Positions 1,735 to 2,168 of a DNA stretch of 64,000 nucleotides are shown here, in pieces. Origin of the DNA: Candidatus Ruthenibacterium merdavium (GTDB lineage: Bacteria > Bacillota > Clostridia > Oscillospirales > Ruminococcaceae); NCBI GenBank assembly GCA_019119935.1, contig DWWA01000018.1, positions 2,771 to 66,770 on the forward strand, given 5' to 3'. A model generated the notes under the pieces. It saw nothing but the letters and a program-made list of their open reading frames with translations. It ran no database searches and was not told where the DNA came from. Numbering within the stretch: position 1 is the first letter of the stretch; each line of letters opens with the position of its first letter. The position numbers and the translations under genes were made by a program.

Positions 1735-1831
1735 AATATAAGCTCCTTTACGATTTCAATGCAGATGATAACAGCTCAAAACTTTTTATCTGTTCTGCCT
1801 TTCCGGCTTAACGTCCTGCTTTTTTCAAAAA

Positions 1832-2149
1832 GCGCACTTCCCGCATCGCGGTGGCCTGCCGACATTATACCATGATGCCGCGCAGCGGCCTCAACAAAAA
1901 CGCACCTGCTGCGTTTTTGCATGGATACGTTGGCGCAGGCCGGGCGGACTTTCCGCCCTGTGCGCTTTTGCGCACTTTCCGCATCGCGGTGGCCTGCCGA
2001 CATTATACCATGACGCCGCGCAGCGGCCTCAACAAAAACGCACCTGCTGCGTTTTTGCATGGATACGTTGGCGCAGGCCGGGCGGACTTTCCGCCCTGTG
2101 CGCTTTTGCGCACTTCCCGCATCGCGGTGGCCTGCCGACATTATACCAT
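1832..2149. repeat. 138-bp tandem repeat, 2.3 copies (42-bp A + 96-bp B arranged A-B-A-B-A)
   Basis: Units start at 1832, 1970 and 2108; only two variable positions (1840/1978/2116 C/T/C and 1876/2014 T/C). Confidence 0.97.
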
Positions 2150-2168
2150 ATTCCCCTCACTTTCGCAA
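2140..2168 (-). promoter_or_regulatory. Sigma-A promoter upstream of the repeat and rlmL
   Basis: Minus strand TTGCGA (2168-2163), 17-bp spacer, TG-G-TATAAT (2145-2140); the extended -10 recurs at 2002-2007 and 1864-1869. Confidence 0.75.

Follow-up and report, generated by a model that had tools for sequence, protein, structure and literature searches.

Tandem units in front of rlmL in Candidatus Ruthenibacterium merdavium as a probable local amplification of a dispersed, promoter-embedded palindromic repeat

Introduction

In the genome of Candidatus Ruthenibacterium merdavium (assembly GCA_019119935.1), the rRNA methyltransferase gene rlmL is preceded by a tandem array of 138-bp units that combine promoter-like boxes with near-perfect hairpins. 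The array lies in a 64,000-nucleotide stretch of contig DWWA01000018.1 (positions 2,771 to 66,770), referred to here as the window, whose numbering is used for all coordinates at this locus. A first-pass annotation of the window, made from the sequence alone, read the units either as cloverleaf-like small RNAs (sRNAs) made from an amplifiable array or as a copy-number-variable attenuator that tunes rlmL. The question raised by the locus is whether the units serve rlmL, encode RNAs of their own, or belong to something that is not confined to this gene.

As described below, the array is not an rlmL-specific control device. It probably represents a local tandem amplification of a dispersed non-coding palindromic repeat that is embedded in promoters, a "mobile promoter" comparable to BIME and Correia elements. 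The family to which these modules belong is apparently undescribed; it is scattered in Ruthenibacterium and has related forms across Clostridia. The basis for this reading is the dispersal of the modules and their orientation, the existence of empty and occupied lepA promoters, the different behavior of the right and left boxes, the co-varying helices, and the differences in copy number between assemblies.

Anatomy of the array

The control region of rlmL, all of it on the minus strand, starts with the intrinsic terminator of the upstream gene, which codes for a 95-aa protein (2221-2508); this terminator (2181-2203) consists of a 9-bp stem followed by TCTTTTTTTG. Next comes the resident rlmL promoter (2140-2168), the "left box" of the array, which comprises TTGCGA (2163-2168), a 17-bp spacer, and TGGTATAAT (2140-2148) and has 10 of 12 consensus matches, along with the TG. 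The repeat was delimited by Tandem Repeats Finder at 1832-2149 (period of 138, 2.3 copies, 98% matches) and includes two full 138-bp units and a truncated 41-bp one. Thus, the 138-bp minus-strand tandem described in the first-pass annotation is exact to the base, and so are its further statements that only two positions distinguish the full units, that TGGTATAAT heads every unit (2140-2148, 2002-2010, and 1864-1872), and that TTGCGA is found, 17 bp upstream, only at the outermost one. The two variable positions are 33 and 135 of the 138.

The body of unit 1 (2011-2139) consists of a GTCG linker, a 63-nt four-way junction bounded by GCAGGCC...GGCCTGC (2073-2135), the linker AACGTATCCATGC (2057-2069), an A5-hairpin-T5 element, AAAAACGCAGCAGGTGCGTTTTT (2034-2056), a small hairpin, GCCGC-TGC-GCGGC (2015-2027), and a terminal GTCA. 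The small hairpin is an additional part that was absent from the original description. The extended -10 box TGGTATAAT at 2002-2010, which is borne by the element itself, closes unit 1 and opens unit 2, whose body (1873-2001) contains the second 63-nt four-way junction (1935-1997), the linker (1919-1931), the A5-hairpin-T5 element AAAAACGCAGCAGGTGCGTTTTT (1896-1918), and the small hairpin (1877-1889). The four-way junction had been proposed as a closed structure and is recovered as such in the minimum-free-energy fold of the unit. The last extended -10 box, TGGTATAAT at 1864-1872, is presumed to be the working promoter of rlmL, by comparison with the loci discussed below in which a co-oriented gene starts after the last box (42 of 44). 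The third copy, as originally reported, is limited to this box and 32 nt; it comprises the first 32 nt of a unit body (1832-1863), breaks off within hairpin 2, and makes up the beginning of the rlmL leader. The rest of the leader (1735-1831) includes the ribosome-binding site (RBS) AAAGGAG and is followed by the rlmL open reading frame (ORF) at 625-1734. Its 369-aa product has THUMP and methyltransferase domains (the Pfam domains RlmL_1st, THUMP, and UPF0020 were found on a protein identical to the RlmL of the window) and is 95% identical to RlmL from Ca. Ruthenibacterium avium. ARAGORN detected no tRNA or tmRNA genes in the window.

Taken as a module, the unit has a simple layout. It starts immediately after the -10 hexamer of a gene and carries two clusters of near-perfect hairpins, of which the first is closed by a stem beside the box (and takes the form of a four-way junction in the window), and the second combines the A-run/hairpin/T-run with a small GC hairpin. 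Its 3′ end is an extended -10 box of its own (TGnTATAAT) that faces the gene. The promoter and terminator activities of the units are putative and have been assigned from consensus matches only. Within the family, the window units make up a diverged subtype, with GTCG instead of AACC and AACGTATCC instead of AACATTGAACC. The rlmL leader also contains, on the minus strand, a box-like sequence, TGTTATCAT (1765-1773), followed by GCATTGAAATCG (1750-1764), which is similar to the family linker AACATTGAACC; judging by this similarity, the two could be the decayed box and linker of an older module.

Dispersal of the modules

The genome that carries the rlmL array encodes three or four further, diverged copies (on contigs C25, C5, C39, and C40). 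The first three of these are 78-81% identical to the unit in BLAST alignments, and the one on C40 is a weak match added by a covariance model that was built from 15 units of Ruthenibacterium lactatiformans strain 585-1. These copies are found in front of a phosphopentomutase-like gene, a short-chain dehydrogenase gene, and a gene for a YafY-like regulator.

Within the genus, the covariance model detected copies in 10 of the 37 Ruthenibacterium genomes, and their distribution is patchy, with 75, 19, 17, 13, 7, and 5 copies in the richest ones. According to the first-pass annotation, many dispersed, untranscribed copies would speak for an ordinary REP-like element and against its own reading; as far as dispersal is concerned, this is what was found, with 75 copies in a single congener. 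In that congener, R. lactatiformans 585-1, many of the approximately 75 copies form tandem or mosaic arrays with periods of 141 or 145 bp (141-163 bp for the tandem copies in the genus as a whole). The 3′ half of its units (hairpin, small hairpin, and box) is ∼90% identical to that of the window unit, whereas the junction is unlike that of the window in sequence and yet has the same architecture, a closing stem with three hairpins. The mosaic arrays of R. lactatiformans also contain a second type of module, referred to here as "B" (ATGTCCGGTTGGCGAATGCAAGCCGCAGGCGAAGCATGAGCCTGGCGGCATAGATACCATG...), which likewise lies between TGGTATAAT-like boxes. The two types follow one another in alternation between the same boxes, and the B module contains an inverted copy of the box (CATGGTAT / ATACCATG). 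Examples of B modules are found at L050 1203-1320, L051 802-917, and L067 880-982 (minus strand), and the B module has no match in Rfam.

Beyond the genus, matches were found in 15 of 301 genomes of the order, representing 9 of 153 genera. At the class level, the exact pattern TATAATAACCTC-N30-60-GAGAACATT is present in 14 of 401 sampled Clostridia genomes (13 of 217 genera), and the reversed control pattern had no matches in the same 401 genomes. The strict class-wide layout of the motif is TATAAT-AACCTC...GAGAACATT. Copies from different genera share a near-invariant TGGTATAAT-AACCTCA and the matching TGAGAACATTG(A/T)A(C/T)CA. Between the box and this partner they have one to three hairpins of unrelated sequence, and after the partner, one to three more hairpins and then a second TGnTATAAT. 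Tandem and mosaic arrangements recur at this distance: L216, from another family, has four tandem 102-bp units, while L214 and L223 are mosaics of unlike modules (three of them in L223), each with the TATGGTATAAT end. The contig with the four-unit array, from the Clostridia genome G722, also carries a gene for OLE RNA (RF01071, 460 bits; L216 66-728, minus strand) at a distance of ∼0.8 kb.

Orientation and the flanks of the boxes

The gene located downstream of the units is transcribed in the same direction as the units at 42 of the 44 loci analyzed. This includes 33 of the 34 loci at the genus and order levels, where doubtful ORFs were checked by eye and the only exception is L179, and 9 of the 10 class-wide loci, where the RBS is usually located 30-120 nt past the box. 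The downstream genes in the relatives are unrelated to each other and include lepA, prfA, ilvB, parA, coaE, pcrA, and genes for sugar kinases and HAD and HIT proteins, among others. The last unit is often truncated (e.g., in L145, L051, L182, L184, and L216), so that, as at rlmL, a remnant of the module serves as the 5′ leader of the gene.

The two boxes that bound a module differ in their surroundings. The flank of the right box, GGCGTCATGG, is constant in copies across the genus, whereas the flanks of the left box depend on the locus; hence, GGCGTCATGG belongs to the element. Outside Ruthenibacterium, the flank with which the linker after the first cluster of hairpins can pair is that of the right box and not that of the left one (e.g., at L218, 7+1 versus 3+1 of the 8 positions). 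No consistent target-site duplication was found in the full locus table, where the left and right flanks differ in most single copies. The notion that the box itself is such a duplication, which had been suggested by a few loci, failed on this table, and the constant right flank, together with the linker that is complementary only to the right box, leaves a simple target-site duplication unsupported. The box with AACCTCA does have an imperfect inverted partner, TGAGAACATTGAACCATG (13 of 18 positions), which is internal to the unit and not terminal.

At L221 (∼1620-1650), GGAGAACATTTG is directly followed by the ATG of a pcrA/uvrD-like gene, so that the GGAG of the linker apparently doubles as the RBS. 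The pairing partner of this GGAG (or TGAG) in complete modules is the CCTC beside the box.

Empty and occupied promoters

The promoter of lepA is orthologous across the genus and consists of CC(C/T)CTGTGCAAAC, a T-run, and TGnTAnAAT. In four related species (genomes G019, G003, G043, and G017) it is bare, with an ordinary leader after the -10 box. In R. lactatiformans 585-1, a module starts exactly after the TATAAT and ends with GGCGTCA-TGGTATAAT, which is followed by a partial B-type module and then by lepA. The right-hand junction at this locus cannot be placed, since the leaders have diverged.

A related comparison is possible for rlmL itself. The outermost rlmL promoter of the window is homologous to the TTGCGA-17-TATAAT promoter in front of rlmL in Ca. 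R. avium, where it is followed by AACCGCAAAGCC...GCTTTGCACGTTTTCAAC and then by the RBS (L056 1385-1500). What follows the avium promoter is a first hairpin cluster on its own, which belongs to the AACC subtype, unlike the GTCG units of the window, so two close species carry different subtypes at the same promoter.

Copy-number variation

Assemblies were compared through contigs that encode the upstream 95-aa protein. Among the assemblies displayed, L187, L189, L191, and L192 have two full units and a truncated one, whereas L188 and L190 have a single full unit and a truncated one; three contigs end within the array. The variable copy number expected from the first-pass annotation was thus observed, as one or two full units, although the collapse of repeats in short-read assemblies might have contributed to it. 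The two variable sites reassort among unit positions between assemblies. This pattern fits unequal exchange between the repeats, possibly with some contribution from short-read collapse.

Presence or absence of whole modules among strains was not seen at either the SDR locus or the R. lactatiformans HIT locus. The pair of modules in front of the R. lactatiformans HIT-like gene is identical in 10 assemblies, which means that any mobility is old or rare.

Folding of the units and the possibility of small RNAs

The promoter strand of the unit folds into the four-way junction and the hairpin with an energy of -58 kcal/mol (z = -5.7; none of 200 dinucleotide shuffles is as stable). The earlier contention that the structure is genuine and not a by-product of duplication holds. 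A structure of equal stability is predicted for the reverse complement (-57.1 kcal/mol, z = -5.6). In the Ruthenibacterium modules the folding energies of the two strands are equal; in other lineages, the antisense strand is slightly more stable in 22 of the 30 modules with unequal energies (P = 0.002). The G-U pairs are rare and nearly equally frequent on the two strands, with 117 of 2,628 pairs (4.5%) in the sense and 128 of 2,747 (4.7%) in the antisense direction across 61 distinct modules. In the alignment of the 15 units from R. lactatiformans 585-1, pairing extends to 97% of the cells and both sides have changed in 12 pairs, and the helices co-vary between lineages. The number and sequence of the hairpins vary freely, whereas the boxes and the partners of the boxes are the sole fixed parts. 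The equal folding of the two strands and the scarcity of G-U pairs imply that the palindromes are maintained as DNA no less than as RNA. Such a pattern characterizes DNA elements of the REP, BIME, or MITE-like kind and provides no positive support for a dedicated structured RNA; folding as such cannot separate the two roles, as any transcript of the units would fold.

The A-run, hairpin, and T-run that had been described as terminator-like are all there and in Ruthenibacterium look like a bidirectional terminator, with a short G+C core (ACGCA/TGCGT). However, the simple terminator scan called none of the unit hairpins, its only call being the terminator of the upstream gene at 2181-2203. The U-run after the hairpin is found in Ruthenibacterium and is lacking in several other genera.

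These data bear on the view of the units as small-RNA genes, each with a promoter, a four-way-junction body, a seed, and a terminator, arrayed like NsiR1 in Nostoc or LhrC1-5 in Listeria. The seed in this case would be the conserved single-stranded AACGUAUCCAUGC in the window units and GAGAACAUUGAACC elsewhere. Such genes would account for the consensus extended -10 box and the A-run/hairpin/U-run in every unit, the very stable fold (z about -5 to -6), the co-varying helices, and the fact that conservation of unpaired sequence is confined to the stretch that separates the body from the hairpin. Nevertheless, they appear unlikely, as neither the energies nor the G-U pairs show a preference for one strand, the interior has from one to three hairpins depending on the lineage, and outside Ruthenibacterium the hairpin comes without a U-run; on these points, the cloverleaf sRNA reading of the first-pass annotation gains no support. 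In addition, the "seed" can pair with the next -10 box and the flank of that box, so that no target is needed to explain why it is conserved, the copies always lie in 5′ regions facing a gene, and in the common AACCTCA type the predicted transcription start clips the closing stem. The structure had not been recognized as a named RNA family in the first-pass annotation, and covariance-model searches with the families of Rfam 15 produced no meaningful match in the window, the R. lactatiformans loci, or the class-wide loci. The best scores, 24 bits for RAGATH-21 (threshold, 70) and 26 bits for L20_leader (threshold, 59), reflect chance or a neighboring terminator.

Mobility and candidate vehicles

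Insertion exactly 3′ of a fixed short sequence, TATAAT, and hairpins that are perfect on either strand are also properties of non-autonomous single-stranded DNA transposons, of the REP/REPIN type or derived from IS200/IS605, that are moved by a Y1 (HUH) transposase. Similar GCCGC-loop-GCGGC hairpins are found near both ends of the Ruthenibacterium unit, and Y1 transposase genes are present in two of the Ruthenibacterium genomes (G000 and that of R. lactatiformans 585-1). However, this origin is quite improbable, as the Y1 genes do not track the copies: genome G001 has 10 Y1 genes and no copies, whereas G003 has 7 copies and no Y1 genes. Besides, the ends of the IS200 copies in R. lactatiformans 585-1 are unrelated to the element, the Y1 genes are not flanked by boxes, and the similarity of the end hairpins is missing in other genera. 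Mobilization by IS200/IS605 or RAYT transposases was rejected on these grounds (no co-occurrence and unrelated ends), and the search for a recombinase, a transposase, or an autonomous parent element, the latter through inspection of the Y1 elements, found none. R. lactatiformans 585-1 has several IS200-type Y1 genes whose reading frames are broken by stop codons (two TAG codons in L145 1470-1910; also L147) and which are therefore decaying copies.

Phages and plasmids were rejected as vehicles as well. Only four matches were found in 2.9 million viral contigs. One of these four is a full module of the R. lactatiformans type on a 22.6-kb IMG/VR viral contig (175 bits, L198 6413-6568), and prophages could carry modules between hosts. 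The only "plasmid" matches come from 14 records of a single assembly labeled Subdoligranulum variabile (PLSDB OY725837-OY725880; 26-387 kb; 13 of them non-mobilizable), which contain 64 units of the R. lactatiformans type. These records look like chromosome fragments of a Ruthenibacterium-like genome that were filed as plasmids.

A dedicated role at rlmL and other alternatives

If the array were a cis-acting leader or attenuator dedicated to rlmL, the copy number would set the read-through into the rRNA methyltransferase gene. The array does directly front rlmL, and its copy number is unequal between assemblies. Still, this explanation is highly improbable: the same unit stands in front of many unrelated genes in its own genome and in relatives, which leaves the rlmL-tuning device proposed in the first-pass annotation without support, the rlmL genes of most relatives have no such array, and the last unit brings its own putative promoter, so that the upstream units need not affect rlmL at all. 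The idea that the repeat is an assembly artefact or a protein-coding repeat (a 121-aa ORF at 1776-2141, minus strand) can be dismissed with near certainty: although 138 is a multiple of three and the ORF spans the array, six or more assemblies made independently contain the array, which disposes of the artefact that had been considered from the start, the ORF lacks an RBS and takes its start codon from the ATG of TATAATG, a 145-bp period, which is not a multiple of three, is found in related arrays, and the conserved parts are palindromes and boxes and not a reading frame.

Relation to known repeats

A search of the literature text for the motif strings and for Ruthenibacterium repeats returned nothing relevant. 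The family fits the operational definition of the putative mobile promoters (PMPs) of Matus-Garcia, Nijveen, and van Passel (2012), i.e., highly similar upstream sequences found before unrelated genes of a genome (PMC3575422). The PMPs are an operational class, derived from BLAST comparisons of positions -150 to -50, for which no common architecture was described; like the modules, they are common to several genera and families and have no match in Rfam (PMC3575422). To count as PMPs, sequences ahead of genes that are not homologous to each other must share, within a genome, 80% identity or more across a minimum of 50 nt. In Ca. R. merdavium, the copy on contig C25 is 80-81% identical to the unit over 115-147 nt and that on C5 is 81% identical over ∼100 nt (77% over 147 nt), and the downstream genes are unrelated. 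What distinguishes the module family from PMPs is its defined layout, with a start after the -10 box, two hairpin clusters, and its own -10 box, and its tandem and mosaic arrays.

In Correia elements, the two termini are inverted repeats, and a TA target is duplicated. The Correia repeat-enclosed elements (CREE) of Neisseria resemble the modules in being ∼100-150 bp long, non-coding, dispersed, and gene-adjacent and in carrying inverted repeats and promoter boxes (cited in PMC3575422). In the modules, however, the box has its inverted partner inside the unit, the two outer boxes form a direct repeat, there is no consistent duplication, and insertion is tied to the -10 hexamer. The REP and BIME sequences mostly follow genes, and RAYT (Y1) transposases are associated with them. 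REP/BIME and REPINs share with the modules the G+C-rich perfect hairpins, the mosaic intergenic arrays of variable copy number, and the equal folding of the two strands (PMC3116915, cited in PMC3575422). The modules differ from them in standing before genes and facing them, in carrying promoter boxes, and in having no link to Y1 transposases. Thus, with respect to location, 42 of the 44 loci are 5′ of a co-oriented gene rather than at the 3′ ends of genes, and with respect to a cognate transposase, Y1 genes and copies do not co-occur and the Y1 flanks contain no boxes.

The intergenic mosaic elements of Neisseria and the pneumococcal BOX elements are modular arrays in which short units are joined via a shared short repeat. 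The box-A-box-B-box layout of R. lactatiformans is comparable to these, except that its shared repeat is a consensus sigma-A extended -10 promoter. Finally, the arrays of NsiR1 in Nostoc and LhrC1-5 in Listeria occupy a single conserved locus each, and their RNAs have been detected experimentally. They have in common with the modules a repeated promoter, structured RNA, and terminator upstream of a gene (all putative in the modules), whereas the modules occupy dozens of unrelated loci, show no strand bias, and vary in the interior. In being small, palindromic, modular, and promoter-bearing, the family resembles Correia elements, BIMEs, and mosaic repeats; it is set apart from them by its strict place behind the -10 hexamer, by the extended -10 box that it carries at its own end, and by always pointing the same way, toward the gene.

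Proposed origin of the array and implications

If the rlmL array is, as seems probable, the product of tandem amplification of a dispersed promoter-embedded repeat, its history and function could be pictured as follows. Modules would spread by recombination or insertion at -10 boxes, and arrays would expand and contract through unequal exchange between the repeated boxes. The resident rlmL promoter and the first internal box would each start a structured transcript of ∼105 nt, most of which would end where the hairpin meets the U-run. Transcription of rlmL would be driven by the last box (1864-1872) alone, with an mRNA that begins with the truncated unit. A module would thereby replace the promoter that it interrupts, so that insertions would be tolerated, and the upstream units would be, at most, short self-terminating transcription units.

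A bolder and more tentative idea, which we regard as possible but doubtful, is that the modules are a new kind of mobile element of Clostridia that integrates precisely at the 3′ border of sigma-A -10 hexamers. Such an element would be moved by some recombinase, perhaps using the short homology of the boxes or the single-stranded open promoter complex for its integration, and would offset the interruption of the promoter by the -35-independent extended -10 promoter at its own end. Modules of different types might then be exchanged in a cassette-like manner at a single promoter, as suggested by the comparison of rlmL in the window species and in Ca. R. avium.

The modules break short-read assemblies and, when seen before a single gene, can be mistaken for riboswitches, sRNAs, or attenuators. 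They also offer a sharply defined, testable example of insertion linked to a core element of promoters. Once the family has been described and given a covariance model, annotators could mask these repeats, and the model would support the search for the enzyme that spreads them. If the modules indeed supply and multiply promoters, they would represent a widespread and previously unrecognized source of transcriptional rewiring in gut Clostridia, including the cultured R. lactatiformans.
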